From Candidatus Binataceae bacterium (GTDB taxonomy: Bacteria; Desulfobacterota; Binatia; Binatales; Binataceae), in assembly GCA_041491005.1 (NCBI GenBank), contig JBGPUE010000010.1:178-64177 (forward strand): a stretch of DNA of 64,000 nt, written 5' to 3'. Shown in pieces: positions 28,146 through 57,162 of this stretch. Position numbers and translations under genes: made by a program. Under the pieces are notes generated by a model. The model did no database searches. It saw nothing but the letters and a program-made list of their open reading frames with translations, and was not told where the DNA came from. Positions within the stretch are counted from its first letter, which is position 1. Each line of letters opens with the position of its first letter.

Positions 28146-30722
28146 GTGCCCACCGAAATCGCAGAAGCCCAACCGGATCCCGTGTCGATCGAGGCGTTAT
28201 TCGAGCGCTGTCAAGTCACCGAGGCGGGCCTCTCGAGCGAAGAGGCTTCCCGCCGCCTCGTGCGATACGGCCCGAACGAACCAGTTCCGCTCCGCCGTGG
28301 TACCGCGATCACTCAGTTCATCCGGTTTTGCAGCAATCCGCTGGTCCTGATTCTCCTATCGGCGTGTGCTATTTCGGCCCTGGTCGGCCAGAGAATCGAT
28401 GCCGCGATCATTGCCGCGATGGTGGCAATCAGCATCGCGCTGAATTTCGTCCAGGCGTACCGGTCAGAACGCGCAGTGCTCCGCCTCCGTGAGCAGGTCG
28501 CACCGAGCGCAACCGCTCTGCGCAACGGACGGTACGTTGAGGTGCCCCGCCGCGCGATCGTGCCGGGAGATATCGTGCGGCTTGCCGCCGGCGATCTGGT
28601 ACCCGCTGACGCGCAGCTCATTCAGAGCCGCGATCTTCACCTTCAGCAGGCGGCGCTGACCGGAGAATCGATGCCGGTCGAAAAGTTCGCCATCGGGAGT
28701 GAACCCGTGGCAGACAAGTCGGCGAGCCTGATCTTTCTTGGCAGTTCGGTCGTTAGCGGCAGTGGCACAGCAGTAGTCATCGCCACGGGATCGGCCACGG
28801 CCTTCGGCGGCATCGCGGCCCGGCTGGCGGTCCGGCCGCCTGAGACCGAGTTCGATCGCGGCACGCGACAGTTCGGTTTCCTGATCATGAGGACGGTCTC
28901 TTTCCTCATCCTGTTCATCCTGCTGGTCAACCTGAGCGCGCATCGCAACGCACTCGAATCACTCCTTTTCGCAGTCGCTCTGGCAGTCGGGCTGACCCCT
29001 GAGTTCCTGCCGATGATCACGACGGTGACGCTCTCGATGGGCGCGGTGAGGATGGCGCGCAAGAAGGTGATCGTAAAGCACCTCATCGCGATCGAAGACT
29101 TCGGCAGTATCGATGTGCTGTGCAGCGACAAGACTGGCACGCTTACTACCGGCACGATGTCACTCGATCGTTCGCTCGACCCCTTCGGTCAGCCGTCGGA
29201 TCGTGCTCTATCGCTCGCCTATCTCAATAGCCGCTTCGAAACGGGCATCAAGAGTCCGCTTGATGCCGCGATATTGGCGAATCCGCGCGACGATGCAGAG
29301 CCTTACCAGAAGCTCGACGAAATCCCGTTTGACTTCGAGCGTCGCCGTCTTTCGATCCTGGCCGGAAGGAACGGCGCCCGTCTCCTTGTTACCAAGGGAG
29401 CGCCTGAGAGCGTCATCGGTGTCAGTGCATATTTCGAAGCTGGCGGAACTACGCATCCGCTGGAGGAAGAGCCACGACGCCGATGCGAAAAGACTTTCCG
29501 GGAGCTCAGCGCGCAGGGCTTTCGCGTGCTCGCGGTGGCGTGTCGCCAGATCGAGGGCCGTGATCGACTGGCGACGGACGATGAGCACGATCTCATCCTC
29601 ACCGGATTCCTAACCTTCTTCGATCCTCCAGTCGGAGATGCGTCAGAATCGCTTGCGGCGCTGCGACGGGACGGAGTGCAGGTAAAGATTCTGACCGGTG
29701 ACAATGAGCTGGTCACAAGGCATGTCTGCGAGCAGGTCGGGATAAAGGCTGAGCGGATCGTGCTCGGAGACGAGGTCCAGGGCATGAGCGACTCGGCATT
29801 GGGTCACGTCGCCGAACAGGTGGACGTCTTCGCGCGTGTGTCGCCGGCTCAGAAAAATCGGATCATTCAGGCTCTCAGGCAGCGCAGCCACGTGGTCGGC
29901 TTCCTGGGTGACGGCATCAATGACGCGCCCTCTCTGCACACCGCCGATGTCGGGATCTCAGTGGCCGGAGCTGTCGATGTAGCCAAGGATGCTGCCGATA
30001 TCATTTTGCTGGAGCACAATCTTCAGGTGCTCCACAGCGGCATCATCGAGGGCCGCAAGGCCTTCGGCAATGTTCTGAAGTATTTGCTGATGGGGACCAG
30101 TTCGAATTTCGGCAACATGTTCAGCATGGCGGCTGCGTCGGTCTTTTTACCATTCCTTCCGATGCTGCCGACCCAGATCCTGCTGAACAATTTCCTCTAT
30201 GATCTTGCCCAGGTGACGATTCCCACCGACAATGTCGACCCGCTGTACATCCGCAAGCCTCAACGCTGGGACATCACGATAATCCGCAACTTTATGCTGG
30301 TGATTGGTCCGATCAGTTCTATCTACGACTTCCTGACCTTCTACGTCCTGTTGAAGGTCTTTCACTCTTCCGAGCAGCTGTTTCACACCGGTTGGTTCGT
30401 CGAGTCGCTCGCGACGCAGACTCTGGTGCTTTTCGTGATCCGAACGGCGGGCGTCCCCTGGAGCAGTCTGCCCAGCCGGCCGCTGGCGGCGACGACCGTG
30501 TTGGTCGTCGTGATCGGCGTGTTGCTGCCGTTCTCTCCGCTCGCGCAGGCTTTGGGGTTTGTGCCCCTCCCCGGCCGCTACTTTGTCTTCCTGACAGTAG
30601 CGACGCTGACCTACCTGTGTCTGGTCGAAGTCGCGAAGCGCTGGCTCATGGGGCGGCTGCTGGCCAAGCCGGACCGGCGCGTCGGCCATCGTGTGCGCCG
30701 ACACTCTGGAGCCGTCGCATGA
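28146..30722 (+). CDS. mgtA: Magnesium-translocating P-type ATPase
   Basis: DKTGTLT phosphorylation motif, TGD, GDGINDAP, 858 aa with the MgtA-type N-terminus (LSSEEASRRLVRYGPNE). GTG start with SD GGGAGA. Confidence 0.9.
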   Translation: MPTEIAEAQPDPVSIEALFERCQVTEAGLSSEEASRRLVRYGPNEPVPLRRGTAITQFIRFCSNPLVLILLSACAISALVGQRIDAAIIAAMVAISIALNFVQAYRSERAVLRLREQVAPSATALRNGRYVEVPRRAIVPGDIVRLAAGDLVPADAQLIQSRDLHLQQAALTGESMPVEKFAIGSEPVADKSASLIFLGSSVVSGSGTAVVIATGSATAFGGIAARLAVRPPETEFDRGTRQFGFLIMRTVSFLILFILLVNLSAHRNALESLLFAVALAVGLTPEFLPMITTVTLSMGAVRMARKKVIVKHLIAIEDFGSIDVLCSDKTGTLTTGTMSLDRSLDPFGQPSDRALSLAYLNSRFETGIKSPLDAAILANPRDDAEPYQKLDEIPFDFERRRLSILAGRNGARLLVTKGAPESVIGVSAYFEAGGTTHPLEEEPRRRCEKTFRELSAQGFRVLAVACRQIEGRDRLATDDEHDLILTGFLTFFDPPVGDASESLAALRRDGVQVKILTGDNELVTRHVCEQVGIKAERIVLGDEVQGMSDSALGHVAEQVDVFARVSPAQKNRIIQALRQRSHVVGFLGDGINDAPSLHTADVGISVAGAVDVAKDAADIILLEHNLQVLHSGIIEGRKAFGNVLKYLLMGTSSNFGNMFSMAAASVFLPFLPMLPTQILLNNFLYDLAQVTIPTDNVDPLYIRKPQRWDITIIRNFMLVIGPISSIYDFLTFYVLLKVFHSSEQLFHTGWFVESLATQTLVLFVIRTAGVPWSSLPSRPLAATTVLVVVIGVLLPFSPLAQALGFVPLPGRYFVFLTVATLTYLCLVEVAKRWLMGRLLAKPDRRVGHRVRRHSGAVA

Positions 30723-30782
30723 CGGTGTTACCGATCGGGCCGCTCGAGAAATGACGCAAAGCAGCGGCCAGGATCCGCGGCA

Positions 30783-31940
30783 TCATTGTAGACGAAACCG
30801 CGCGTACTGCTCCGCAGAGCTGTCGAAATCGATGCTCGCGTGCTGTGCGCCAACATTGATGTTTCGGAACGCAGCCTGCAACGCGCTGGGATCGTAGACC
30901 GCATGCGCGCCCGAGCCGGTAAACATCCTAACGACCGCGCGCCGGCATAGCTCCGCGGCGTATGCCGCGTGCCATTTGGCACGCACGCGTCCTTCGGTAC
31001 CGGCGGGATCCGCGCTGCCCATCAGCTGGTCGAATTCGGCGAACGTCTCTTGAAGGAGCAACTCGGCCGACTCGATTTCCGCAGCCGCTTCCGCCAATCG
31101 GACCTGAGTCGGTCCATGTTCGGCCTTCGAGGCGCCGGTCAGGATAACCTTGCGCTCGCGCGTCCGGTTGACGAACTGTTCGAGTGCGAATTTGGCGGAT
31201 CCCAGAACAGCGGTCGCGACCGAAACCGACAGGATGGCCTCCGCGGACAGCCGGTACACCGAGGTCGCGTGATTCTTACTGTGCGGGCTCTCACCGCGAA
31301 ACATGATTCGCGTATCGATCGCGCGATGAGCCGGGACCAGGATGCCGCGGGCTACGACGTCCTTGCTGCCGGTCCCCCGCAGACCCATCACATGCCAGGT
31401 GTCGTCGACCTCGATCTCGTGTCGCGGAACGACCACATGCACCAACGGTCCATGCGTCGACGAGTCCGCACAGCCAAGCATCACCCATTGCGCATTGTCC
31501 ACGCCACTGCAGAACTCCCATCGGCCGTCGACCCGGTAGCCGTCGCCTTCCTGCATCGCCGCGCCCTGCCAAGAGAGAGTTCCTGCGACCAACCCGTCAC
31601 GGCCCGCTCCGAATACTTCGTCCTGGGCGCCTTCCGGGAAAGATCCGAGACACCAGTGATGCGCCTCCATCACCATCAGCACCCACCCGCTCGATGGACA
31701 AGCCTGCGAGATGAGCGTGACAGCGTTCCCCAGTGTTCGGAGATTCATTTCGAAGCCGCCGGTGCGCGCGGGTTGTGAGATGCGAAACATACCGGCGGAG
31801 ATCATCGCCTCCATGCTTTCAGGGATGACACGCCGGGCCGCATCGCAAGCCTGGGCGTTGCGGGCAAGCGTTGGCGAGATAGCTGATACGCGCCGCATTA
31901 TTTCGCCGTGGTCGATCCGCATCTGCTCTTCACTCGGCAT
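30783..31940 (-). CDS. Acyl-CoA dehydrogenase-fold flavoprotein (possibly a flavin-dependent monooxygenase type)
   Basis: ~385 aa with ACAD-like middle beta-domain and C-terminal helical region; divergent N-terminus. Confidence 0.6.
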   Translation of the reverse strand: MPSEEQMRIDHGEIMRRVSAISPTLARNAQACDAARRVIPESMEAMISAGMFRISQPARTGGFEMNLRTLGNAVTLISQACPSSGWVLMVMEAHHWCLGSFPEGAQDEVFGAGRDGLVAGTLSWQGAAMQEGDGYRVDGRWEFCSGVDNAQWVMLGCADSSTHGPLVHVVVPRHEIEVDDTWHVMGLRGTGSKDVVARGILVPAHRAIDTRIMFRGESPHSKNHATSVYRLSAEAILSVSVATAVLGSAKFALEQFVNRTRERKVILTGASKAEHGPTQVRLAEAAAEIESAELLLQETFAEFDQLMGSADPAGTEGRVRAKWHAAYAAELCRRAVVRMFTGSGAHAVYDPSALQAAFRNINVGAQHASIDFDSSAEQYARFRLQ

Positions 31941-32115
31941 CTGCTTGGCAGTTCAACGGATTCTATCGTCGCCGGTTCGTTTGATCGAGCGGCGTTTCAG
32001 AATATCGATTCCGCGAAGTTCTGCGCAGCCGCGCAGCCCGATATTTCGAGCGAGAGTTACCCGATTCGCACACTTTAATGAGTCCTCTTAGAGGAAGGTC
32101 CCCGAAGGGCCGCTT

Positions 32116-33054
32116 CTACGCGTGGACGATTAGATCGGCGAGCGATCGATCGCTATGCAGGCGGTCGATTGCGTCCGCGAGCAGTGGTGCGAGGCTGACG
32201 CGCTGGACCGGGACAACCGCCGGGTCGGGCCCCCTCACGCTGTCGGTATAAAATAGTCGCTTTATGGGTAGTCCGCGCAGGCGCTCGATGGCCGGCCCGA
32301 CGAACAACCCATGGGTGCATACCACCGTGATCTGCGGATCGCATCCCGCCGCGAGCAGGGCGTTGATTGCCGCTTCGATCGTCCCCGCCGTCGTGATCAT
32401 GTCGTCGACGATCAGCGGCGCGAGTCCGCGCACGTCGCCCACCACGCCCCGCGCTTCGACCCGCTCTCCGCTCAGACGGCGCTTGTAGACCACCGCGGTC
32501 GGCGCGTGAAGAGTCCGGGCGTAGCGCTCAGCGAGCTTTACGCCGCCAAGGTCGGGGCTGACGATAACGGTTCGTGACCCGGCTACGGCGCTGATCGCGG
32601 GCACCAGAATCGGCAATGCAGCGAGATGCTCCAGCGGAACGGGAAAGAAACCCTCCAGCGACGTCATATGAAGGTCGACGGCGACGATCCGGCTGACGCC
32701 GACAGTCGCAATCAGATCCGCCGCGATTCGCGCACCGACCGGGCCGCGGCCCGTCGCCCGTCGATCCTGGCGCGCATACCCGAAGTACGGGATGATCGCC
32801 GTCATCCTTTCTGCGCCTGCCCGCCGGCAGGCATCGGCGAGGAAGATTAACTCGAGCAGATGTTCGTCGACGGGCGGCCCCGTAGGCTGCACAAGATAGA
32901 CATCCTGCCCACGCACACTCTGCTCGAGCTCGATGTTGAGCTCGCTGTCGGGAAACCGGCCCACGATGCGCCCCCCCAGCGGGACGCCGAGTCGGTCGGC
33001 GATTGACTCTGCAAGCGGGAGGTTGGCCGATCCGGCAAGGATAGTCAGGTTCAT
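32116..33054 (-). CDS. prs: Ribose-phosphate pyrophosphokinase (PRPP synthetase)
   Basis: MNLTILAGSANLPLAESIA...DVYLVQPTGPPVDEHLLELIFLADACRRAGAERMTAIIPYFGYARQDRR; PRPP-binding loop DLGGVKL...VDDMITTAGT. The start is set at MNLTIL (SD GGAAGAG). Confidence 0.9.
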   Translation of the reverse strand: MNLTILAGSANLPLAESIADRLGVPLGGRIVGRFPDSELNIELEQSVRGQDVYLVQPTGPPVDEHLLELIFLADACRRAGAERMTAIIPYFGYARQDRRATGRGPVGARIAADLIATVGVSRIVAVDLHMTSLEGFFPVPLEHLAALPILVPAISAVAGSRTVIVSPDLGGVKLAERYARTLHAPTAVVYKRRLSGERVEARGVVGDVRGLAPLIVDDMITTAGTIEAAINALLAAGCDPQITVVCTHGLFVGPAIERLRGLPIKRLFYTDSVRGPDPAVVPVQRVSLAPLLADAIDRLHSDRSLADLIVHA

Positions 33055-33191
33055 TGTGCTCTTCCTGCATTCCCGATTCTGCATCGAGAACGTGACGAGC
33101 AATGCTTGCCGCGCCGCGCGGTGACGCTGTCATCGAGCCTAGGCGAGCCAGTGCGGCTGGGCAACTGCACCTCCTCTATCTGAACCGCATG

Positions 33192-33980
33192 CTATTTCGC
33201 CAACGCTTGGCCTTCTTTGGCGGCGCCCGTGCAGCGGAGGGCACACTTGTCGGGGACCGGCCAAAGGCCCGGCGCGTTCGGCTCTATGCGCTCGCCCAGT
33301 GCAATCAGAAAAGGACCTGAAAGTAGATAGCCGGTAGCGAAGAGAAATGCTGCGAGCTGGGGTAAGGCCACTAGAACGCTCAAGGTGACGATCATCGCGA
33401 TCATCGTTGGAAGCGATAGGCGCCGAAGGTTGAGTGATTTGAAGCTCGGATATGGAACGCGTGAAACCATCAGGCCCCCCAAAATCAATGTCAATCCAGC
33501 GATCACTGCACATAGTGTGCGGGGCGCGGTGATCTCGAAGTATTGGTATGCGAGCACGACGCCCGCGACCATTGCGGCGGCAGCGGGAACGGGCAGACCG
33601 ACGAAGCGGCTCTTGTCGACACTACCTGCCTGGATATTGAAGCGCGCGAGGCGCAGCGCCGCACACACGACATAGAGGCCGCAAATCGTCGCGCCCCATA
33701 CACCCAGTGGCTCGAGCGCCCAGGTATAGACGAGCACTGCGGGCGCCACGCCGAAGGCCGTTACATCGGAAAGGCTGTCAAATTCCACTCCAATGGCGCT
33801 GGTGGTGCGCAGGGCGCGAGCTATCGACCCATCGAGCCAGTCGAACACAACCGCGATTTCGGTCATGAGCGCGGCGCGTCCGTAATGACCATGAACGGCG
33901 AAGACCAGCGAGAAGAAACCAATCAAAAGTCCAAGCGAAGTAGTCGCTTCAGGTAGCAGCGCGCTCATAAGCGAGGTCAT
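33192..33980 (-). CDS. CDP-alcohol phosphatidyltransferase (phosphatidylserine-synthase-like)
   Basis: D-G-x2-A-R-x7-G-x3-D-x3-D motif (DWLDGSIARALRTTSAIGVEFDSLSD); multiple TM helices. Confidence 0.75.
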   Translation of the reverse strand: MTSLMSALLPEATTSLGLLIGFFSLVFAVHGHYGRAALMTEIAVVFDWLDGSIARALRTTSAIGVEFDSLSDVTAFGVAPAVLVYTWALEPLGVWGATICGLYVVCAALRLARFNIQAGSVDKSRFVGLPVPAAAAMVAGVVLAYQYFEITAPRTLCAVIAGLTLILGGLMVSRVPYPSFKSLNLRRLSLPTMIAMIVTLSVLVALPQLAAFLFATGYLLSGPFLIALGERIEPNAPGLWPVPDKCALRCTGAAKEGQALAK

Positions 33981-34110
33981 CTCGCTGCGCGCCTCCTGTC
34001 TGGGAGATGCAGGTCGCACGGCGTCCCTTTTACAACCGTCCACAGCCTGATTTCTCCGGTATCTCGAACGATTCCGGTGCGAGAAATCGCGTTTGCAAGG
34101 TTATCGCCGG

Positions 34111-34644
34111 CTAGTCAGCCAACGTGACGGTGCTGGCCTGCGGACCCTTCTCGCCCTCTTCTTCGGCGAAGCGGACATGACTGCCGACTTCGAGACGCTC
34201 GAAGCCGGGCGCCAGCACGCTGTTGCGATGGAAGTAGATCTCGCGACCGTCGGGCGTCTCGAGGAATCCGTAGCCGTCATCGCTGAAGAGCCTCGCGACG
34301 CGCGCCAAGGCCGGCCCTTCGTGGCTCTTAACCGCGCCGCGCACCTCGCGCACGTGGTCTTCAAGCCGCCGCCGGGCCGCGTCGAAGGCCTCGCGGATCG
34401 CCGTCATGAGTTCCTCGTCGGACTGATGGCTAATCGCGAGTTCGCCCCTCGGGACCTTCAGGTCGATTCGAATCTTGAACGGACCGCCCCGGCGGTGATG
34501 GCGCACCGGAGCTTCGACCGCGATGCGGCATCCGCTGATTTGGGGATCAAACTGTTCGAGCTTCGCAGCCCTGCGCCGAAGCTCAGCCTCTTCTGCCTCG
34601 GTCAACTGAAAGTTACGCGCTGTGATTTGAACCGGATATTCCAC
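34111..34644 (-). CDS. Ribosome hibernation factor (HPF/RaiA-like) N-terminal domain fused to a C-terminal cold-shock domain
   Basis: N-terminus MEYPVQITARNFQLTEAEEAELRRRAAKLEQF...FKIRIDLKVPRGELAISHQSDEELMTAIREAFDAARRRLEDH (HPF/YfiA fold pattern). C-terminus DDGYGFLETPDGREIYFHRNSVLAPGFERLEVGSHVRFAEEEGEKGPQASTV (CSD RNP-like GYGFL and FH motifs). Confidence 0.7.
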   Translation of the reverse strand: MEYPVQITARNFQLTEAEEAELRRRAAKLEQFDPQISGCRIAVEAPVRHHRRGGPFKIRIDLKVPRGELAISHQSDEELMTAIREAFDAARRRLEDHVREVRGAVKSHEGPALARVARLFSDDGYGFLETPDGREIYFHRNSVLAPGFERLEVGSHVRFAEEEGEKGPQASTVTLAD

Positions 34645-34877
34645 GTCGTTCCTCTCTTAGCCGAGCTTTCCGCAATCCCTGTGCCACCAGTCACGAACGC
34701 CAGCTTGGCCGAATCGGCGGCCGTTGTGTCACCAAGAGAGACACGCGTGACCCCGTTGGGCGCAAACTTTGAAGTGACGGGCGTGGCGGTTGGCGGCCGA
34801 CCCTTCTGACGCACGATCGGCGTTCACGGCGCACGTCTTGCAAGTTGGCCTGATCGGGCTAGGCTCGTCACAGATCG

Positions 34878-35300
34878 ATGCCCAGCGACGAATTCTACCG
34901 TGAGATCGAGCACACCGGGGATGCGGGTGTCGAGCTCGTCGCCACGTCGCGCGCTGAACTGTTCCGCAGGGCCGCGATCGCGATCGCGCGGCTGATGGTG
35001 GCGCCCGAGGGCGTCCGCCCGATCGAGCGGCGCGAGGTGCGGGTCAGTGCAGTGAGCGATGCCGACCTGATGCACGACCTGCTCGCGGCGTTGCTCAACT
35101 TGTTCCTGGTTGAAGGGTTCATTTGGTGCGATGCGGTGGTGAATGAAGACGGCGATTCAGTGCGCGCGGACGTAGTCGGCGAACGCTATGATCCCGCGCG
35201 CCACGAGCTGCGCACCGAGATCAAAGCCGTGACCTACCATCAGCTGTCGGTCGAGCGCGTGGGAGATCGCTGGCAGGCGCAGGTGATTTTCGACATCTAG
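34878..35300 (+). CDS. Archease (RtcB activator)
   Basis: YREIEHTGDAGVELVA signature; 140 aa; immediately upstream of rtcB. Confidence 0.85.
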   Translation: MPSDEFYREIEHTGDAGVELVATSRAELFRRAAIAIARLMVAPEGVRPIERREVRVSAVSDADLMHDLLAALLNLFLVEGFIWCDAVVNEDGDSVRADVVGERYDPARHELRTEIKAVTYHQLSVERVGDRWQAQVIFDI

Positions 35301-35359
35301 GCTGCCCCGCGCGCAATCGTGCGAAGCGCGGCCGTCGAACGCGTCGGCGGTATCCGGTT

Positions 35360-36796
35360 ATGGAACTCCAGAAGATCAGCGACTTTCTATGGGAAATCCC
35401 GCGCCATGGAGCGATGCGCGTGCCGGGGCGGATTTACGCCAGCCAGCAGATGATCGACGAACTCCGCGATGATCCAGCGCTGACGCAGGTCGCGAACGTC
35501 GCGTGCCTGCCCGGCATCGTCGGCTACTCGCTCGCGATGCCCGATATCCATTGGGGCTACGGATTTCCGATTGGCGGTGTTGCCGCGACCGATGCCGACG
35601 AAGGAGTGATTTCACCCGGCGGTGTCGGCTACGACATCAACTGCGGCGTGCGGCTGATCAAGACCAACCTCGAGTACACGGCCATCGCGGACAAAGTTGA
35701 TCGTCTGGCTGACGCGCTCTTCGATGCTGTGCCCGCGGGCGTTGGCTCCAGCGGCGCGATTCCCGGCCTCGCGACCGACGAGCTCAAACGTCTGCTCGGC
35801 TCCGGCGCCGTATGGGCGATGAACCACGGCTACGCTTCGATGGATGATCTCGAGCACACCGAAGAGAGCGGCCGGCTCGAGATGGCTGACCCATCGGCCG
35901 TCAGCGAGATGGCGCTCAGGCGCGGGCGCATCCAGCTCGGCACACTCGGCTCGGGCAATCACTTCCTCGAATGCGACCGTGTCGATCAGATCTACGACCC
36001 CGACATCGCGCGCGCCTTCGGCCTCGAGCTCGGCCAAGTGACTGTGATTATCCATTCAGGCTCGCGCGGACTGGGCCATCAGATCTGCGACGACCATTTG
36101 CGCGTGATCGGCAAGGCGATGAGCGGTTACGGGATCACTCTACCCGACCGCCAACTCGCCTCGGTGCCGATCCGCTCGCCGGAGGGTCGTGCCTACCTGG
36201 GCGCGATGGCGGCGGCGGCCAACTTCGCCTGGTGCAACCGGCAGATCATGATGCATCTGGCCGAGCGCGCCTTCATGGAGACGCTGGGCACAGGGCCGCG
36301 CGAAGTCGGCTTCTCGTTGCTGTACGACGTTTGCCATAACATCGCCAAGTTCGAGCGCCATGTGGTGGGCGGTGTCGAACGGCGCGTATGTGTGCATCGC
36401 AAAGGTGCAACGCGCGCCTTCGGCCCAGGCCATCCGGCGCTGCCCATCGCCTTTCGAATGATCGGGCAGCCAGTGCTGATCCCCGGTGACATGGGCCGCT
36501 ATTCGTATGTGCTGGTGGGACGCGAACGTGCGATGGCCGAGACCTTCGGTTCGACCTGTCACGGCGCTGGGCGCTTAATGAGCCGCGCCGAAGCCAAGCG
36601 CCGGGCGCGCGGCCGCGACCTACTGGCGGAATTGCGGGAGGCCGGCGTGACGATCAGGTACCAAGGCCGTTCGACAGTCGCGGAGGAAATGCCGGCCGCT
36701 TACAAGGATGTCGCAGACGTGGTCGGAGTGATGGAAGCGGCTGGCGTCAGCAAGCGAGTGGCGCGGCTCAAACCCTTCGCCGTAATAAAGGGTTGA
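35360..36796 (+). CDS. rtcB: RNA 3'-phosphate/2',3'-cyclic-phosphate RNA ligase RtcB
   Basis: DIHWGYGFPIGGVAA, GYDINCG, HSGSRGLGHQ, THNHAGR-like CHGAGR motifs; 478 aa. Confidence 0.9.
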   Translation: MELQKISDFLWEIPRHGAMRVPGRIYASQQMIDELRDDPALTQVANVACLPGIVGYSLAMPDIHWGYGFPIGGVAATDADEGVISPGGVGYDINCGVRLIKTNLEYTAIADKVDRLADALFDAVPAGVGSSGAIPGLATDELKRLLGSGAVWAMNHGYASMDDLEHTEESGRLEMADPSAVSEMALRRGRIQLGTLGSGNHFLECDRVDQIYDPDIARAFGLELGQVTVIIHSGSRGLGHQICDDHLRVIGKAMSGYGITLPDRQLASVPIRSPEGRAYLGAMAAAANFAWCNRQIMMHLAERAFMETLGTGPREVGFSLLYDVCHNIAKFERHVVGGVERRVCVHRKGATRAFGPGHPALPIAFRMIGQPVLIPGDMGRYSYVLVGRERAMAETFGSTCHGAGRLMSRAEAKRRARGRDLLAELREAGVTIRYQGRSTVAEEMPAAYKDVADVVGVMEAAGVSKRVARLKPFAVIKG

Positions 36797-37132
36797 TGCC
36801 GCGTCCATCGGCCTAGCCACCGCTATTGACGTTATTGAGTCCTACGAGTGTGTCAGGCGATGCGCCGAGCGCTCTGGATGCCGTAAGCGTCAGCCGCGTC
36901 GCCGCAGTGCGCGATTACGCGACGCGAATCTGCCTGATTGGCGCTGCTGCATCTAACGGAGTCATTGGTTCCCGGCTGACCCTCCTTACGAAAGCACCCA
37001 TCTCCGACATACTCTGTCTTTCGACATGGCGTTCCAATTCATAAGCAGCGATGGTGCGATTCGCTGGACTTAGACGCGAGCATCGGCGCATCCAGTTGAT
37101 TGTGCGGGGCTGAATACCTCCGCCTGTTTGTG

Positions 37133-37148
37133 CGGCAGGAGAATTGCT
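37133..37148 (+). promoter_or_regulatory. Weak sigma54-type (-24/-12) promoter candidate upstream of usp
   Basis: cGGCAGgagaaTTGCT: GG and GC are at the canonical 10-nt spacing but with 2 mismatches to TGGCAC-N5-TTGC. The resulting leader would be very short (~14 nt). Confidence 0.2.
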
Positions 37149-37172
37149 CAGGGCTCATGCAATAAGTCGGCG

Positions 37173-37583
37173 ATGAGACTGCTGTTCCGAAAGATTCTTT
37201 GTCCTATCGATTTCGACCGCATCGCGATCGGAGCAATCCAACTCGCGCGCGAGCTAGCCGGGCGAGACGGCGGCCTCGTCTACCTCTTGTGCGTCGTCCC
37301 CAAAGACCGGACTCGTCTGAAAGCCGACTTGGAGCAGGTCGCACACAACAGCTTGCGCGGGATTGGCCGCAAATGGTTCGAGGGAAAAGCGCCGTACGAG
37401 ATCCTCGTTCGCGCCGGCCGGCCAGCGCGGGCGGTGCTTGATGCGGCGGAGGAACTCGGCGTTGACGTCGTGGTGATGGCAACTCATGGGCGAACAGGAA
37501 CCAGGCGTGTGCGTCTGGGCAGCGTTACCGAGGAAGTGGTTCGGCAGTCGACACGACCGGTGGTGACAATCAGGCCAACGTAG
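37173..37583 (+). CDS. Universal stress protein (UspA family)
   Basis: MRLLFRKILCPIDFD... aligns with the second Usp (MSKLFNRILCPIAFE); C-terminal ATP-binding motif VVMATHGRTGTRRVRLGSVTEEVVRQSTRPVVTIRP. Confidence 0.8.
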   Translation: MRLLFRKILCPIDFDRIAIGAIQLARELAGRDGGLVYLLCVVPKDRTRLKADLEQVAHNSLRGIGRKWFEGKAPYEILVRAGRPARAVLDAAEELGVDVVVMATHGRTGTRRVRLGSVTEEVVRQSTRPVVTIRPT

Positions 37584-37637
37584 GGCTTGGCCTGCTTCGT
37601 CGATCTTAACGCGCCAAATCGAGGAGGACATCGCACA

Positions 37638-37838
37638 ATGAGCAGATACAATTGGGACGAAATCAACCGCACGGTTGAGGACTTAACCAAGCGTTACAAC
37701 ATCGCAGCGGTCGACAGCGTGACCGTCGGTGGAAATAGCGATGGAGTCGAGTTGACGCTCACCTCGCTGACCCCCGAGCAAGCCGAGCAGATCTTCAGGC
37801 TCATCGGGCTCAAGCAAGTCGAGCTCACAGTGCTCTGA
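37638..37838 (+). CDS. Small hypothetical protein (66 aa)
   Basis: Strong SD GAGGAGGA 7 nt before the ATG; protein-like composition (MSRYNWDEINRTVEDLTKRYNIAAVDSVTVGGNSDGVELTLTSLTPEQAEQIFRLIGLKQVELTVL). No recognised domain. Confidence 0.5.
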   Translation: MSRYNWDEINRTVEDLTKRYNIAAVDSVTVGGNSDGVELTLTSLTPEQAEQIFRLIGLKQVELTVL

Positions 37839-38109
37839 TCGCGCATCAAGCCGCCTCACTCTCTCGTTGACGGTCCGCAATGGTAGTCGTCGCGAAGAGC
37901 ACCCTTGTTCCGACGATACGGCGGAGTCGCGTAGATGCGGCGAGGCTGCTTCGTCCCCCGCTTCGATGCCGGGCCTCACGATGTTTGTGTGGAGCGATCC
38001 GGAGCGCGGCTGGCGCCTTTGGAAACACATCAGAGGGGGCTGGCTTACCGTGGTTCACTGTGGCCTACCCGGAAGCTGAGAATTCAGTGCAACGAATCCA
38101 GGAGTTCGA

Positions 38110-38125
38110 TGGCAAGTTTCTTGCG
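38110..38125 (+). promoter_or_regulatory. Sigma54-type (-24/-12) promoter upstream of hsp20
   Basis: TGGCAAG-tttc-TTGCG matches TGGCACG-N4-TTGCW at 13/15 positions with exact GG/GC spacing. The predicted TSS (~38136) leaves a 35-nt leader containing the SD AAAGGAGGAGAG. Confidence 0.45.
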
Positions 38126-38170
38126 ACACAGCATCATCGAACACCAACAATTTGAAAGGAGGAGAGATCA

Positions 38171-38623
38171 ATGGGAGCATTAACCCCATGGAGGCCGTTT
38201 CGCGAAATGGAGCGATGGGCGCGCAATCTGGAGGGCCGCTTTCCGCGAGTCTTTGAGGACTGGCCGTTTCGGGCCGAGGAAGCGGAGTTTCTGCCGCCGA
38301 TTGAGAGCTTCGTCCAGAACGGCAATATCGTCGTGCGCGCCGACGTTCCCGGACTGGAGGCCAAGGACATCGAGGTCAGCGTTTTGGGCAACGTGCTGAC
38401 GATCAAAGGCGAGCGCAGGGATCAGAAGGAAGTCAAGGCCGAGGATTACATCCGGCGCGAGATCTCCTACGGCTCCTTCGAGCGCAGGCTTACGCTGCCC
38501 GATGGCGCCGATGCCGACAAGGTCAAGGCGCAGTTCAAAAACGGGACGGTCGAGATCACGATGCCGATGGCCAAGGGCGCCAGCCCCAAGAAAGTGCTGG
38601 TGGAGAGCGCAGAGAAGAAGTAG
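38171..38623 (+). CDS. Hsp20/alpha-crystallin small heat-shock protein
   Basis: 150 aa; alpha-crystallin-domain pattern (...FLPPIESFVQNGNIVVRADVPGLEAKDIEVSVLGNVLTIKGER...FERRLTLPDGADADKVKAQFKNGTVEITMP). Confidence 0.9.
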   Translation: MGALTPWRPFREMERWARNLEGRFPRVFEDWPFRAEEAEFLPPIESFVQNGNIVVRADVPGLEAKDIEVSVLGNVLTIKGERRDQKEVKAEDYIRREISYGSFERRLTLPDGADADKVKAQFKNGTVEITMPMAKGASPKKVLVESAEKK

Positions 38624-38734
38624 TCAATCGGTCACAGGGGCAGGCGGCTACCACGCATCGCAGTTGTGCCTGCCTCCCCCGCGGCACTGGATTGTCGCAG
38701 CTCACGCGGCCTGACGCGAAAGGAGGAGATTCAG

Positions 38735-39337
38735 ATGCCAGCCGGGTCGACGATCTTGAATACCAATCACGAGCGGGTCGAGAAGCTCCGAACAGTGCTA
38801 GTCAGCCAACGCGACCATGCGTGGGCAAGGGTGCGGGAGTTCCGTCACGACCAGGAAGGCGACGCGATTCCGCCGCCGGCGGATGAGATGGACCTGGCGC
38901 GTTCGACCGCCGACCTCGAGACTCATGCGAGCCTGATCGAACAAGCGGAAGACCGGCTCGCACAAATCGACGACGCGCTGGCGCGGCTCAACGAAGGCCG
39001 CTATGGGATCTGCGCAAAATGCGTCGAGGAGATCGCGGTCGAGCGTCTCAACACGCTGCCCTTCGTGCTGTACTGCGTCGATTGCCAGCGCGAACTCAAC
39101 CGTGCGCGCCGCCGCGGCGAGGGCAGCCTGTCGCGCAGTTTCGGCCGCCGCTGGGAGACGCCGCTGGAGATGGATGAATCGCTGGAGAGGACCGACGCGA
39201 TGAGCCAGCCCGAGGAAGAAACCACCATACGCGAAGGCCGGCCTTTCGGCCGCGAAGAGGGCACTCCAGACCACGGCCGGATGCCGCGTACGGGCAGGGG
39301 CTTGGTTCGGCGCGGACGGCCCAAGCGCAGTGCGTAG
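38735..39337 (+). CDS. DksA/TraR-family C4 zinc-finger protein with a long disordered C-terminal tail
   Basis: Coiled-coil N-terminal region plus CAKCVEEIAVERLNTLPFVLYCVDC (C-x2-C-x17-C-x2-C). SD AAAGGAGGAG; 200 aa. Confidence 0.7.
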   Translation: MPAGSTILNTNHERVEKLRTVLVSQRDHAWARVREFRHDQEGDAIPPPADEMDLARSTADLETHASLIEQAEDRLAQIDDALARLNEGRYGICAKCVEEIAVERLNTLPFVLYCVDCQRELNRARRRGEGSLSRSFGRRWETPLEMDESLERTDAMSQPEEETTIREGRPFGREEGTPDHGRMPRTGRGLVRRGRPKRSA

Positions 39338-39355
39338 TCGCGCAGGGGATACCGG

Positions 39356-39802
39356 ATGAGCAAACTATTCAACCGGATTCTCTGCCCGATCGCGTTCGAG
39401 CACGAGTCGTTGAGCGCCCTCGATCTGGCCATAGCGATCGCGCAGCAGAACGACGCGACCCTCGTGCTGCTCAACGTCGCGCCGCTCCCAATCGGAGCCG
39501 GCGAATTCGCGCCGACGCTCGATCCGTATCCCGCGATCGAGCAAGTGGCGCGCGAACGGCTTGAGCGACTGGCCCACGATCGGCTTGAAGGCAAGGTCGC
39601 ATACAACACCCATGTCGTCGCGGGCGATCCGGCGACGCAGATCCTCCGTGCGATCGAGGCCTTCGCCGCCGATCTGGTCGTGATGGGGACGCATGGGCGC
39701 AAGGGCGTCAAACATCTGCTGTTGGGGAGCGTCGCGGAGAAGGTCGTGCGCGAGTCACCGCGGCCTGTGCTGACCGTGCGTCCCGCAGAGGAAGCGCGCT
39801 GA
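39356..39802 (+). CDS. Universal stress protein (UspA family)
   Basis: MSKLFNRILCPIAFEHESL...VVMGTHGRKGVKHLLLGSVAEKVVRESPRPVLTVRP. Confidence 0.85.
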   Translation: MSKLFNRILCPIAFEHESLSALDLAIAIAQQNDATLVLLNVAPLPIGAGEFAPTLDPYPAIEQVARERLERLAHDRLEGKVAYNTHVVAGDPATQILRAIEAFAADLVVMGTHGRKGVKHLLLGSVAEKVVRESPRPVLTVRPAEEAR

Positions 39803-39828
39803 CGGCTTGATACGCGGGAGGCAGACAC

Positions 39829-40479
39829 TTGCAGATAACTACCGACTCAGTTGAACTTGAGGGCGACCTCGAGATGCCGGCGGGCGTTGCGCGGGGAATC
39901 GTGATCTTCGCGCATGGGAGCGGAAGCAGCAGGCTCAGCCCGCGTAACATGTACGTGGCTGCCCGTTTGCGTGCGGCCGGAGTCGCCACATTGCTTTTCG
40001 ACCTGCTCACCGAGGCCGAGGCGCTGGATCGCCAAAACGTCTTCGATATGGAGCTGCTCGCCCGCCGCTTGCGGGCCGCTACCGCATCGGTGCGCCGCCA
40101 TCGGCTCGCCGGGATACTACCGGTCGGCTATTTCGGCGCCAGTACCGGCGCTGCTGCTGCACTAATCGCCGCAACGCGCGATCCAGCGATCACCGCGATC
40201 GTGTCGCGCGGTGGGCGACCCGACCTCGCGGGAGATGCGCTCGCTCAGGTGAAGGCGCCGACGCTGCTCATCGTCGGCGGCGAAGACCGCGAAGTGCTGG
40301 AGTTGAATCGGCGCGCGCTCAGGCGCCTGAGCTGCGAGAAAGAACTCCGGGTAGTTCCGGGTGCGACGCATCTGTTCGAGGAGCCGGGAACGCTCGACGA
40401 GGTAGTGAAGCTCGCCAGCGATTGGTTCGTGCGCCATCTGCACGCTCACCCGGGCGAAAAGGAGACCCATGTTCACTAA
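39829..40479 (+). CDS. Dienelactone-hydrolase-like alpha/beta hydrolase
   Basis: GIVIFAHGSGSSRLSPRN, nucleophile elbow GYFGASTGAAAAL, PTLLIVGGEDREV, ATHLFEEPGTL. Confidence 0.75.
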   Translation: MQITTDSVELEGDLEMPAGVARGIVIFAHGSGSSRLSPRNMYVAARLRAAGVATLLFDLLTEAEALDRQNVFDMELLARRLRAATASVRRHRLAGILPVGYFGASTGAAAALIAATRDPAITAIVSRGGRPDLAGDALAQVKAPTLLIVGGEDREVLELNRRALRRLSCEKELRVVPGATHLFEEPGTLDEVVKLASDWFVRHLHAHPGEKETHVH

Positions 40480-41173
40480 TCGCCAGGATGCGGGACGCCG
40501 GCTCGCCAAGGCTCTCGCCCGCTACAAGGATGACCATCCCGTCGTGCTGGCACTGCCGCGCGGTGGAGTTCCGGTCGGTTTCGAGGTAGCCAAGGCGCTG
40601 AGCGCGCCGCTGGACATTATCGTCGTGCGCAAGCTGGGCGCTCCCGGACAACACGAGCTGGGGATCGGCGCGGTCGTCGACGGCGACCATCCGCAGACCG
40701 TGCTCAATGAGGAACTGCTGCGAAGGATCGATGTGCCCAAGAGTTACCTCGAAGCAGAGATCCTGCGCGAGCTTGAGGAGATCCACCGCCGCCAGCAGAC
40801 CTACCGCAAGGGGCATCCACCGGTCGATCCAGCCGGGCGGATTGTAATCGTCGTCGATGATGGGATCGCGACTGGCGCCTCGATACGCGCGGCGTTGCGC
40901 GGTCTGCGAAAGCTCGCTCCCCGCCGTCTGGTGCTCGCCGTGCCGGTCGCACCCGCCGAGACGATCGAGTCGCTCAGAGCCGAGGTCGACGAGGTGGTTT
41001 GTCTTGCGACCCCGCCCGATTTCTTCGCTATCGGACAGTACTATGACGATTTCAGGCAGACTTCTGACGCGCAGGTAGTCGAGCTGCTCGACAAGGCGCG
41101 CAATCGTGTGCTGGCGCCCTCGCCGCCAGCGGCACGCTCTCCATCAGAAGAGAGCAAAGCGCCCTCCTGCTAG
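40469..41173 (+). CDS. Predicted phosphoribosyltransferase (type I PRTase fold)
   Basis: PRPP-binding motif IVIVVDDGIATGASIRAAL; N-terminus MFTNRQDAGRRLAKAL. Confidence 0.75.
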   Translation: MFTNRQDAGRRLAKALARYKDDHPVVLALPRGGVPVGFEVAKALSAPLDIIVVRKLGAPGQHELGIGAVVDGDHPQTVLNEELLRRIDVPKSYLEAEILRELEEIHRRQQTYRKGHPPVDPAGRIVIVVDDGIATGASIRAALRGLRKLAPRRLVLAVPVAPAETIESLRAEVDEVVCLATPPDFFAIGQYYDDFRQTSDAQVVELLDKARNRVLAPSPPAARSPSEESKAPSC

Positions 41174-42886: not shown

Positions 42887-43384
42887 ATGTCGGCGGCGGC
42901 GAAAACATTCATGAAGCCTGACCGCAACTGGGATCGTACGGCGATTCTTGCGATTGCCTCGCGGCAAAGCGCAAAGCCGGGCGCGCTGATGCTGGTCCTG
43001 CGGGAGATTCAGGACCGCTTCGGTTTCATCCCTCCTGACTGCGTGCCGACAATCGCCCAGGCGCTCAACCTGTCGCGAGCAGAAGTCCACGGCGTCATCA
43101 GCTTCTACCATGACTTCCGCGCCAAGCCCGCAGGCAGACACCTCTTGCGCGTCTGCCGCGCGGAATCGTGCCAGGCGATGGGCGCAGTCGAGCTGCTCTC
43201 TCACATCAAGAAGCGCACGGGAATCGGCCTCGGCGAGACGAGCGAAGATGGCACGTTTACGCTCGAGCCCGTCTATTGTCTTGGCAACTGTGCCTGCTCG
43301 CCGGCAATCGTGATCGATGGCGAGCTTCATGGCCGCGTTACAGCCGACGCCTTCGATCATTTGATCGCGGGTCTCAGGGAATAG
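42887..43384 (+). CDS. fdsG: NAD-dependent formate dehydrogenase gamma subunit / NuoE-like 2Fe-2S thioredoxin-fold subunit
   Basis: LLRVCRAESCQAMGAVELLSHIKK...PVYCLGNCACSPAIVIDGELHG (four Cys of the NuoE-type 2Fe-2S site). Confidence 0.75.
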   Translation: MSAAAKTFMKPDRNWDRTAILAIASRQSAKPGALMLVLREIQDRFGFIPPDCVPTIAQALNLSRAEVHGVISFYHDFRAKPAGRHLLRVCRAESCQAMGAVELLSHIKKRTGIGLGETSEDGTFTLEPVYCLGNCACSPAIVIDGELHGRVTADAFDHLIAGLRE

Positions 43385-43386
43385 CA

Positions 43387-44988
43387 GTGGCGCTGTCCGT
43401 CTATGTCCCTTGTGATTCGGGCGCCCGCTCTTTGGGGGCGGACACGGTTGCACGCACTATCCGCGAGGAGGCATCACGCCGTGGCGTTGCGCTCGAAGTC
43501 GTGCGCACGGGCTCGCGCGGACTTTATTTTGCCGAACCCCTGGTCGAGGTCGCGACCGCGGCTGGCTGCGTCGCGTATGGGCCGGTATCGGCCGCTGACG
43601 TTGCATCGCTATTCGAAAGTGATTTCCTCGCGGGCGGCGAGCATCGTCTCCGGCTCGGCCTAGCCGACGATATCCCTTATCTCAGATCCCAACAGCGGCT
43701 CACGTTCGCACGCGCCGGAATTGTCGATCCGGCCTCTCTCGATGATTACTTGGCGCATGGCGGTTACAGCGCGCTCCGAATGGCTCTGGAAAGGACGCAG
43801 TCCGCCGTTATCGATGAGATTGCAGCGTCGGGGTTGAGGGGCCGCGGCGGCGCCGGATTCCCCACCGGCATCAAATGGCGAACCGTTCTCGAGACCGCTG
43901 CGGATACGAAATACGTTGTATGCAACGGCGACGAGGGCGACTCGGGCACTTTTTCGGATCGCATGATCATGGAGGGCGATCCGTTTGCGCTACTCGAAGG
44001 CATGACGATCGCGGCATTCGCCGTCGGCGCGACGCAGGGCTTCATCTATGTCCGCTCCGAATACCCGGATTCATATCGCCAGCTTGGCCAGACACTACAG
44101 ACCGCTCGCAAACACGGCTGCTTGGGCGACAAGATCCTTGGTTCGAGCCTGCGCTTCGACGTCGAACTCAGGCTCGGCGCCGGCGCTTACATCTGCGGCG
44201 AGGAGACCGCGATGCTCGAAAGCATTGAAGGCAAGCGCGGGATGGTGCGCGCAAAGCCGCCGGTGCCGGCAATCAGCGGGCTCTTCGCCAAGCCGACGGT
44301 GGTCAACAATGTCATCACGTTTGCGTCTGTCCCGGTTATCATTGCGAATGGAGCGCAGTCTTATCACCAGCGCGGCACGGGCCGCTCGCGGGGGACCTTG
44401 CCCTTTCAGCTCGCCGGCAACGTCAAGCGCCCGGGGTTGGTTGAACTGCCGTTCGGCGTCACCATCCGCGAACTCGTCTTCGACTACGGGGGTGGCACCG
44501 CAAGCGGCCGTCCAGTTGGAGCCGTGCAAGTCGGTGGCCCACTGGGTGCGTACTTCCCGCTCAAGATGTTCGACACGCCGCTGGATTACGAGGCGATGGA
44601 CGCGGCCGGGGGAATCCTCGGCCACGGTGGCATCGTAGTCTTCGACGACTCGGTAGATATGGCGCGAATGGCGCGATACGCGATGGAATTTTGTGCGCTG
44701 GAGTCATGCGGGAAGTGCACGCCATGCCGGATCGGCTCGGTGCGCGGGACGGAGGTGATCGATCGCATCGTGAACCGCCACAATCCGCGCGCGAACCTCG
44801 AGTTGCTGCGCGACCTCTGCGATACGATGATGCACGGCTCGCTGTGCGGTCTGGGCGGCCTCACTCCGCTTCCAGTGATGAGCGCGCTCAGATACTTTCC
44901 TGAGGACTTCGGCCTCGAGCCCGCTAACATCGAGGAAGTCTGGCCGAACCCCACACGACAGGCGGACGACGATGCTGTCAAAGGCTGA
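43387..44988 (+). CDS. fdsB: NAD-dependent formate dehydrogenase beta subunit / NuoF-like (NAD, FMN, 4Fe-4S)
   Basis: GRGGAGFPTGIKW (NADH/FMN site), CGKCTPCRIG (4Fe-4S). GTG start right after the fdsG stop; the listed ORF's upstream extension overlaps fdsG in another frame. Confidence 0.85.
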   Translation: MALSVYVPCDSGARSLGADTVARTIREEASRRGVALEVVRTGSRGLYFAEPLVEVATAAGCVAYGPVSAADVASLFESDFLAGGEHRLRLGLADDIPYLRSQQRLTFARAGIVDPASLDDYLAHGGYSALRMALERTQSAVIDEIAASGLRGRGGAGFPTGIKWRTVLETAADTKYVVCNGDEGDSGTFSDRMIMEGDPFALLEGMTIAAFAVGATQGFIYVRSEYPDSYRQLGQTLQTARKHGCLGDKILGSSLRFDVELRLGAGAYICGEETAMLESIEGKRGMVRAKPPVPAISGLFAKPTVVNNVITFASVPVIIANGAQSYHQRGTGRSRGTLPFQLAGNVKRPGLVELPFGVTIRELVFDYGGGTASGRPVGAVQVGGPLGAYFPLKMFDTPLDYEAMDAAGGILGHGGIVVFDDSVDMARMARYAMEFCALESCGKCTPCRIGSVRGTEVIDRIVNRHNPRANLELLRDLCDTMMHGSLCGLGGLTPLPVMSALRYFPEDFGLEPANIEEVWPNPTRQADDDAVKG

Positions 44989-55830: not shown

Positions 55831-57162
55831 TCATTCGATTCCATAGCGTCTGCGTTTGCGCCAGAGCGTGGTGGCGTTGATTCCGAGCGTTGCGGCGGCC
55901 TCATCAAGTGTCGCGCTCTCGGCCAGCACTCGCGCGATATGTTCTCGTTCGACGTCTTCGAGACTCGCGGCAGGCGAGGTGGTGCCCGGCGCCTGCGGTA
56001 TATCGCGGAAGATCGAATCGGGCAGATCGTCGGGCCCGATGGTATCGCTGCGGCTTAGCACCGCGGCGCGCTCAAGAGCGTTACGCAACTCGCGCACGTT
56101 TCCCGGCCATTGATAGCGGGCCAGGGCCGCGCCGGCCTGCGGCGCGAGCCGGAGCTGCGGACGGTGGTTGCGAATCGCCGCCGCACGCAGCATCCACTCC
56201 GCCAGCGCCGGGATGTCCTCGCGGCGCTCGCACAGCGGCGGCACGCGGAGCGTAATCACGTTGAGCCGGTAGAACAGATCTTCGCGGAAGCGGCGCGCCT
56301 TGACCTCGTCTTCCAGATCGCGATTGGACGCGGCGATGATTCGCGCGTCGACCCGGATCGTGCGTTCTCCGCCCACGCGTTCGAAGCTCTGTTCCTGGAC
56401 GAAGCGTAGAAATTTGGTCTGCAGTGCGGCCGAGAGGTCGGCGATCTCGTCGAGAAATACCGTGCCGCCGTCGGCCGCCTCCAGGCGGCCGGGCTTGTCC
56501 TTGATGGCGCCGGTGAATGAACCGCGCATATGGCCGAAGAGCTCGCTTTCGAGCAGCTGCTCCGAGAGCGTCGTGCAGTTGACCACGACGAACGGGCGCT
56601 CGCATCGCGGACTCCATCTGTGAATCTGGCGGGCGAGGACGTTCTTGCCGGTGCCGCTCTCGCCGCTGAGCAGGATCGTCGCCTCGCTGCGCGCAGCCTG
56701 CCGCGCGGTTTCCAGCATGCGAACCATTGCGGCGCTGCGCGATTCCAGCATCGGCATCTCGTCGATAGTCTCGCGTAGCACCTGGTTCTCCGCCTGCAGG
56801 CTGTGCATCTGCAGCGCGCGATCGACCACATGGCGTATCTGGTCGAGCGAGAAAGGCTTGGCAATATAGTCGGAGGCGCCGGCCTTCATCGCGGCCACTG
56901 CGTTCTCGACGGTCGCGTAAGCCGTCATCAGGATCACCGGCGTGTAGGGATGCAGCCGCTTCGCCTCGTTGAGCAGCTCGAGTCCGTTCATCTCCGCCAT
57001 CCGGAAGTCGGTCAAAACCAGATCCAGCGGTCCTGCGGCGAGCGTCTGTATCGCCGCGACGCCGCTGGCGGCTTCGCGCACCTCGTGTCCGAGCGACTGG
57101 AAGAACGCCGCGAGGCTGCGGCGAATGTTCTTCTCGTCGTCGACGATGAGCAGTCGCGCCAT
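55831..57162 (-). CDS. Sigma54-dependent (NtrC-family) two-component response regulator
   Basis: Receiver MARLLIVDDEKNIRRSL...DLVLTDFRM; AAA+ sigma54-interaction domain GESGTGKNVLARQIH, GSFTGA (GAFTGA variant), ERVGG; C-terminal Fis-type HTH. The start ATG overlaps the kinase stop (ATGA). Confidence 0.9.
   Translation of the reverse strand: MARLLIVDDEKNIRRSLAAFFQSLGHEVREAASGVAAIQTLAAGPLDLVLTDFRMAEMNGLELLNEAKRLHPYTPVILMTAYATVENAVAAMKAGASDYIAKPFSLDQIRHVVDRALQMHSLQAENQVLRETIDEMPMLESRSAAMVRMLETARQAARSEATILLSGESGTGKNVLARQIHRWSPRCERPFVVVNCTTLSEQLLESELFGHMRGSFTGAIKDKPGRLEAADGGTVFLDEIADLSAALQTKFLRFVQEQSFERVGGERTIRVDARIIAASNRDLEDEVKARRFREDLFYRLNVITLRVPPLCERREDIPALAEWMLRAAAIRNHRPQLRLAPQAGAALARYQWPGNVRELRNALERAAVLSRSDTIGPDDLPDSIFRDIPQAPGTTSPAASLEDVEREHIARVLAESATLDEAAATLGINATTLWRKRRRYGIE

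Follow-up and report, generated by a model that had tools for sequence, protein, structure and literature searches.

An HPF/RaiA–cold-shock fusion of the HPFcold class encoded beside archease and rtcB in a Candidatus Binataceae bacterium

A single gene at positions 34111–34644, on the minus strand, was analysed within a 64,000-nucleotide (nt) stretch of contig JBGPUE010000010.1 (positions 178 to 64,177; assembly GCA_041491005.1) from a Candidatus Binataceae bacterium; this whole stretch is referred to below as the window. The gene encodes a protein of 177 amino acids (aa) in which an N-terminal HPF/RaiA domain is joined by a short linker to a cold-shock domain (CSD) at the C-terminus, and it lies among stress-related genes, with an archease–rtcB pair as its divergent neighbours (Table 1). 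A first reading of the DNA, made without database searches (the sequence-only reading), had proposed that the protein fuses a ribosome hibernation factor to a genuine CSD standing where long HPF proteins carry their dimerisation domain. Both assignments were borne out by HMM domain mapping, in which the two domains scored above the curated Pfam cut-offs: Ribosomal_S30AE (PF02482) matched aa 5–99 (E 6e-12, 46.6 bits vs a cut-off of 23.7) and CSD (PF00313) matched aa 120–175 (E 2.9e-11, 43.5 bits vs a cut-off of 27). Neither Ribosom_S30AE_C (PF16321) nor any other C-terminal HPF domain was found among the Pfam matches to the 177-aa protein, even at E ≤ 1. The NCBIfam models gave the same layout, with CspE/CspA-type models on aa 120–174 and TIGR00741 (yfiA) on aa 5–97; the equivalog and subfamily cut-offs for Csp proteins were not reached (best score 35.3 bits vs 120 for CspE). 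A further NCBIfam match of the CSD, to the retron Se72 effector, was rejected as generic CSD similarity (27 bits vs a cut-off of 82).

An AlphaFold2 model built from 36 homologues (mean predicted local distance difference test, pLDDT, 85.9) showed a beta-alpha-beta-beta-beta-alpha fold at aa 6–102 and a five-stranded barrel at aa 112–175, separated by a seven-residue stretch of low confidence at aa 104–110. In Foldseek comparisons the N-terminal domain superimposed on ribosome-bound Escherichia coli HPF (6h4n_x) with a template modelling (TM) score of 0.91 and a root-mean-square deviation (rmsd) of 1.5 A, and on 4v4g_Aa and 2rql with TM scores of 0.82–0.86, while the C-terminal domain matched the Csp of Bacillus caldolyticus (1hzb; TM 0.86, rmsd 1.6 A). 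The CSD carries the motifs DGYGFL (RNP1-like) and IYFHR (RNP2-like), which form the aromatic face that binds single-stranded RNA in chaperones of the CspA/CspB type. The N-terminal domain (aa 1–103) is basic, with an isoelectric point (pI) of 8.0.

A structural precedent for the whole protein was found in a phmmer search of PDB sequences, where the top match was the 'Ribosome hibernation promoting factor' of entries 9t0z_9 and 9tze (E 3.2e-40). This protein is CBU_0020, which was found by cryo-electron microscopy on native ribosomes of Coxiella burnetii and gave rise to the class name HPFcold (Stuart et al., Nat Commun 2026, PMC13392368); the members described are CBU_0020 itself (PDB 9T0Z, 9TZE) and Legionella pneumophila Q5ZW81 (PMC13392368). 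In the Coxiella structure the PF02482 N-domain sits in the tRNA cleft of the 30S subunit and blocks the decoding centre, a linker of six residues follows, and the PF00313 CSD is found in the mRNA exit channel, where it binds the 16S rRNA anti-Shine-Dalgarno sequence (ACCUC) and is held by bS21 and uS7 (PMC13392368). CBU_0020 thereby protects the 16S 3' end of the monomeric 70S ribosome, which is 70S hibernation and not 100S formation, and conservation within the HPFcold CSD is concentrated on the residues that contact the anti-Shine-Dalgarno (PMC13392368). Four such contacts are described: Y142 and F132 stack on U1534 and C1535, respectively, R123 pairs with C1535, and R177 bridges the backbone of two rRNA segments (PMC13392368 supplement).

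Residues 1–174 of the window protein aligned with residues 6–179 of 9t0z_9 without a gap, at 42% identity, and three of the four rRNA contacts were retained (R123 as R118, F132 as F127 and Y142 as Y137). In an alignment of 113 family members, F127 and Y137 were among the best-conserved columns (present in 105 and 104 sequences, respectively), and position 118 was R or K in 86. The protein further resembles CBU_0020 in the order of its two domains, its short linker, its lack of a dimerisation domain and its length (177 vs 183 aa); it differs in its host, an uncultured bacterium from the environment that is rich in GC, in carrying a Thr at the R177 position, and in its setting within a stress cluster with archease–rtcB and a candidate sigma-54 promoter, a setting that has not been discussed for Coxiella. 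Given the architecture, the full-length homology, the three shared contact residues and the fold, all observed directly, we consider it very likely that the gene encodes an HPFcold orthologue, a two-domain ribosome hibernation factor that acts as CBU_0020 does; binding to the ribosome and to the anti-Shine-Dalgarno, and an outcome of 70S hibernation, are carried over from the Coxiella protein.

Several observations weigh against this assignment. Identity to the solved protein is only 42%, the fourth contact (R177) is replaced by T172 (codon 34126–34128), the CSD taken alone is acidic (pI 4.85), a trait that is uncommon among RNA binders and is seen in many Csp proteins too, and an Rfam scan located no 16S rRNA, the source of the anti-Shine-Dalgarno ligand, within the 64-kb window. 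As regards the missing arginine, Thr is the family consensus in this column (57 of 113 sequences) and Arg is rare (10 of 113), and the salt bridge made by R177 is therefore probably specific to Coxiella or its lineage.

The absence of this rRNA-bridging residue, together with a CSD that keeps the generic aromatic face for single-stranded RNA and matches CspE and CspB sequences at E 1e-8 to 1e-9, would also suit a protein whose N-domain docks on the ribosome while its CSD acts on mRNA or other free RNA, serving (in the cold, for instance) as an RNA chaperone tethered to the ribosome or as a selector of mRNAs. We regard this as unlikely, as in the sole family member with a solved structure the CSD is on the anti-Shine-Dalgarno and the contact residues are kept here, an N-domain in the decoding centre leaves no path for mRNA to thread through the ribosome, and a linker of seven residues gives the CSD little reach elsewhere. 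The suggestion of the sequence-only reading that the C-terminus adds an RNA-binding or chaperone module thus stands in part: RNA binding is supported by analogy, and a role as a chaperone of free RNA is not, the ligand of the solved homologue being the 3' tail of 16S rRNA.

A more distant departure from the HPFcold assignment would be that the protein is not associated with the ribosome in this lineage and that the S30AE fold has been recruited into a stress protein with a general affinity for nucleic acids, for instance a transcription antiterminator or a DNA binder. The N-domain scored low against TIGR00741 yfiA (24 bits vs a cut-off of 40.9) and against the PRK10470 HPF model (13 bits), so that by the strict models of NCBI it is a divergent HPF. 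The S30AE fold is not known to have a role away from the ribosome, the N-domain scores at twice the Pfam S30AE cut-off and superimposes on an HPF that is bound to the ribosome (TM 0.91), and CBU_0020, an orthologue over its full length, was seen on native ribosomes (PMC13392368); together these points make this alternative very improbable.

If the window protein works as CBU_0020 does, its N-domain (aa 1–103) would bind the decoding centre of the 30S subunit and block the binding of tRNA and mRNA, and the short linker (aa 104–110) would let the CSD (aa 111–177) reach the mRNA exit channel. There the aromatic, RNP-type face of the CSD (F127 and Y137, with R118) would stack on and hydrogen-bond to the anti-Shine-Dalgarno bases of the single-stranded 16S rRNA 3' end. 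The predicted outcome is a silenced, monomeric 70S ribosome in which the exposed 3' tail of 16S rRNA is kept from RNases, and dimerisation to 100S of the kind brought about by long HPF or RMF would not be expected. Such 70S hibernation is also what the presence of a CSD in place of PF16321 predicts.

These features set the protein apart from the better-known hibernation factors. The long HPF of Staphylococcus aureus and Lactococcus lactis (PF02482 + PF16321) shares with it a homologous N-domain, for which the same 30S site is inferred, as well as a two-domain build of about 180–190 aa, hence the frequent annotation of HPFcold genes as long HPF; in long HPF, however, the C-domain homodimerises to give 100S ribosomes, whereas the C-terminal 67 residues of the window protein form a CSD. 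The N-domain fold is common to the short HPF and YfiA/RaiA of E. coli, of which the former has a single domain and depends for 100S formation on RMF, a protein that covers the anti-Shine-Dalgarno region, and the latter ends in an unstructured C-tail. Protection of the anti-Shine-Dalgarno falls to the fused CSD in HPFcold (PMC13392368). With the CspA/CspB cold-shock proteins the C-domain shares a five-stranded oligonucleotide/oligosaccharide-binding (OB) barrel, the RNP1- and RNP2-like motifs and similarity at E 7e-9 to CspLA and Bc-Csp; unlike these stand-alone proteins of about 70 aa, it is fused, is by analogy tethered to the ribosome, and has an rRNA ligand in its solved homologue. In spite of its similar length and the generic name 'HPF/RaiA family', the gene should not be filed as a long HPF, and proteins of its kind that carry this generic name or a long-HPF label are better read as 70S-type factors guarding the anti-Shine-Dalgarno tail.

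The integrity of the gene was assessed next to its distribution in databases. Both domains lie in one frame without a stop codon or frameshift, in agreement with the continuous open reading frame (ORF) described in the sequence-only reading. No longer in-frame start is possible, so that 177 aa is the longest reading, and Met1 aligned with Met1 in 106 of the 113 family members. An overlapping plus-strand ORF of 238 aa was unsupported and was rejected as a GC-rich antisense artefact. At least four metagenome contigs, independent of one another and from different runs, code for the identical 177-aa protein, several of them with the same neighbours, and the 90% identity cluster of the protein holds eight members (from NCBI, JGI and Logan). 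An assembly artefact, in which a frameshift from sequencing or assembly, or the loss of a stop codon, had run together adjacent genes for a short HPF and a Csp, is excluded by the recurrence of the identical protein on several independent contigs with the same neighbours; the eight-member cluster, the collinear architecture in hundreds of clusters from many phyla and the solved structure of a fused protein leave such an origin with a negligible probability.

The fusion proved to be widespread. In a search of 5.8 billion proteins, both domains were present at a length of about 180 aa in all of the 120 best homologues, whose source names included 'HPF/RaiA family ribosome-associated protein' and 'cold shock CspA family protein/ribosome-associated translation inhibitor RaiA'. 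Among representatives at 50% identity, 207 clusters were recovered at E ≤ 1e-30 and 1828 at E ≤ 1e-10. The taxonomic distribution of the fusion, scanned with one genome per species, extended to at least 555 genomes, and the labels of the metagenome-assembled genomes (MAGs) among the relatives spanned Methylomirabilota, Binatia, Nitrospirota, Acidobacteriota, Planctomycetota, Myxococcota, Gemmatimonadota, Chloroflexota, Cyanobacteria, Latescibacteria and Alpha-, Beta- and Gammaproteobacteria. Among the genomes listed, the closest relatives (66% identical) came from MAGs labelled Candidatus Methylomirabilis (Methylomirabilota) and 'Deltaproteobacteria'. In four relatives (P0126, 361 aa; P0140, 365 aa; P0161, 643 aa; P0169, 274 aa) the whole HPFcold module was C-terminal in a longer protein, and these may be further fusions or gene-call read-throughs.

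A survey from 2025 describes Csp-HPF chimeras as HPF variants without a C-terminal dimerisation domain that are scattered across bacteria at variable genomic locations; canonical HPF coexists with all chimeras, and non-canonical factors of the Balon type are often adjacent (bioRxiv 10.1101/2025.11.04.686544). The window gene resembles these chimeras in its architecture, variable locus and scattered phylogeny and differs from them in its surroundings, as no Balon-like gene was present among the approximately 30 annotated neighbours in the window. HMM searches of a six-frame translation likewise gave no second S30AE/HPF or CSD/Csp gene within the 64 kb. The 177-aa protein thus belongs to a known class, and its exact sequence is already in public databases; for the HPF–CSD fusion there are a class name (HPFcold), a ribosome-bound structure and a phylogenetic survey, and the gene described here is one more environmental orthologue.

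Table 1. Positions of the HPFcold gene, its parts and its neighbours in the window.
Feature	Position	Strand	Basis or remark
Complete HPFcold coding sequence, 177 aa	34111..34644	-	ORF list; GTG start, stop codon 34111-34113
N-terminal HPF/RaiA (Ribosomal_S30AE) domain, aa 1-103	34336..34644	-	Pfam PF02482, AlphaFold2 model, Foldseek
Interdomain linker, aa 104-110	34315..34335	-	only segment with pLDDT < 50; CBU_0020 alignment gap-free
C-terminal cold-shock domain, aa 111-177	34114..34314	-	Pfam PF00313, Foldseek
R118 codon	34291-34293	-	CBU_0020 contact equivalent
F127 codon	34264-34266	-	CBU_0020 contact equivalent
Y137 codon	34234-34236	-	CBU_0020 contact equivalent
Shine-Dalgarno sequence GAGAGGA	34650..34656	-	read from sequence; 6 nt upstream of GTG
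Candidate sigma-54 promoter TGGCACAGGGATTGC	34672..34686	-	exact TGGCAC-N5-TTGC (-24/-12); ends 27 nt before start codon
Archease, RtcB activator	34878..35300	+	Pfam PF01951, E 9e-37; divergent neighbour, 233-nt intergenic gap
RtcB RNA 3'-phosphate/5'-OH ligase	35360..36796	+	Pfam PF01139, E 4e-174, full length
Universal stress protein (Usp)	37128..37583	+	Pfam PF00582, E 7e-24
83-aa ORF			between Usp and Hsp20
Hsp20 small heat-shock protein	38171..38623	+	Pfam PF00011, E 1e-23
DksA/TraR-type zinc-finger protein, 223 aa	38666..39337	+	
Alpha/beta (dienelactone-type) hydrolase and phosphoribosyltransferase pair	within 37128-41173		archease side of HPFcold
CDP-alcohol phosphatidyltransferase, phosphoribosyl pyrophosphate (PRPP) synthetase, acyl-CoA dehydrogenase, P-type cation ATPase	28146-33102		other side of HPFcold; PRPP synthetase and P-type cation ATPase (28146-33102) part of the cluster

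Pfam matches to archease and RtcB confirmed that both plus-strand neighbours of the gene are what the sequence-only reading had taken them for. The gene is probably expressed under stress, since it lies in a cluster with archease–rtcB, Usp, Hsp20 and a DksA/TraR-like gene and is preceded by a candidate sigma-54 promoter. To place this cluster in context, the neighbours of HPFcold within 6 kb on either side were counted in 80 species-level loci, which had been collected with a 12-sequence alignment of closer homologues. Genes for rtcA or rtcB, with or without archease, were located within 6 kb of HPFcold in 13–15 of the 80 genomes, which belong to several phyla; RtcB was encoded in seven loci and RtcA in eight (six of them robust). 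The idea of an RNA damage-response neighbourhood, originally drawn from the one locus, gained strength from these counts. By our own estimate, which is not corrected for phylogeny, a single-copy gene would fall into a 12-kb window by chance in about 0.3% of cases, that is in fewer than one of 80 loci.

Close arrangements occur among the linked loci: in two (L027 and L034) hpfcold is followed on the same strand by rtcA after a gap of 49 nt, in two others (L048 and L059) rtcB directly precedes hpfcold on the same strand, and in one (L066) an Rtc gene and hpfcold form a directly adjacent convergent pair. Other recurrent neighbours encode Usp (17 of 80 loci), Hsp20 (13), CBS-domain proteins (12), PRPP synthetase (7), DksA-like proteins (5) and P-type ATPases (5), and BON genes recur as well near the orthologues. 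Of three further metagenome loci, two (L085 and L086) contain RtcA together with CBS, Hsp20, Usp and DksA/TraR genes, and the third contains BON-domain genes and a P-type ATPase. The linkage of HPFcold to Rtc is thus real but loose, and its setting is a stress or dormancy gene neighbourhood, not a fixed or conserved operon. Neither the description of CBU_0020 (PMC13392368) nor the survey of Csp-HPF chimeras (bioRxiv 10.1101/2025.11.04.686544) mentions rtcB, RpoN or promoters.

RtcB of E. coli is reported to rejoin the 3' fragment of 16S rRNA that MazF cleaves off (PMC5416887), and the linkage of HPFcold to Rtc genes fits this activity. A tentative proposal, to which we give a rather low probability, is that HPFcold and Rtc form a protect-and-repair pair for the 16S 3' end, which in this lineage would be switched on by sigma-54 within a stress or dormancy cluster (Usp, Hsp20, CBS, DksA/TraR-like). 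HPFcold would guard the anti-Shine-Dalgarno tail while a ribosome is idle, and the Rtc enzymes, here RtcB ligase with archease and at other loci RtcA cyclase, would heal tails that had been cut. The MazF 'stress ribosome' model has been contested. The linkage and the sigma-54 signal are observations, and the functional coupling suggested here leans on the activity described for E. coli RtcB (PMC5416887). Should the link hold, it would connect a factor that protects ribosomes with a pathway of RNA repair for which the natural substrates in bacteria are still debated, and would point to the 16S 3' end as a target common to HPFcold and Rtc.

Upstream of the HPFcold start codon, the sequence TGGCACAGGGATTGC was the only exact match to the sigma-54 consensus in the 64-kb window, where 0.18 would be expected by chance. 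Of 79 orthologues, 13 had a site with at least nine of the ten consensus positions in the 200 nt upstream, compared with 0.94% of random 200-nt windows and with 4.6% of neighbouring genes scanned in their upstream regions (orthologues vs neighbouring genes, binomial p = 6e-5, not corrected for phylogeny). A gene for a sigma-54 activator (bacterial enhancer-binding protein, bEBP) was located within 6 kb of HPFcold in four loci, of which three carry the motif. The window itself encodes an NtrC-type activator (55831–57486, minus strand) with a receiver domain, an AAA+ domain with the motifs ESELFGH and GSFTGA, and an HTH_8 domain, indicating that the organism uses sigma-54; a regulatory link between this activator and HPFcold, 21 kb away, is unproven. 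A search of the 233-nt intergenic region for repeats that might serve as an activator site yielded weak, imperfect repeats only. In E. coli, rtcBA is dependent on sigma-54 and RtcR. Control of HPFcold by sigma-54 is a prediction from the match to the consensus, and TGGCACAGGGATTGC is a candidate promoter; if it is a true one, it would offer a testable regulatory handle on when HPFcold hibernation is used.

Three weaker sigma-54-like sites were seen on the plus strand of the window: one of 9/10 at 38110–38124, 46 nt upstream of Hsp20; one of 8/10 at 34827–34841, 37 nt upstream of archease, which is weak and at background frequency; and one of 9/10 at 2269–2283, 126 nt upstream of the 1406-aa ORF at 2409–6629. 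Each of these is individually within chance expectation. A scan of positions 33900–35400 for sigma-70 promoters and intrinsic terminators gave none, a result that is uninformative in GC-rich DNA, and an Rfam scan of the whole window gave no RNA family and hence no riboswitch or leader. Elsewhere in the window, two very long ORFs encode proteins of 2954 aa (8578–17442, minus strand) and 1406 aa (the plus-strand ORF named above). Adjacent plus-strand genes at 43168–47758 encode a Nuo51-type protein (FMN/NADH, 606 aa) and a molybdopterin oxidoreductase (928 aa); this pair looks like an NAD-linked formate dehydrogenase-type enzyme unrelated to HPFcold.

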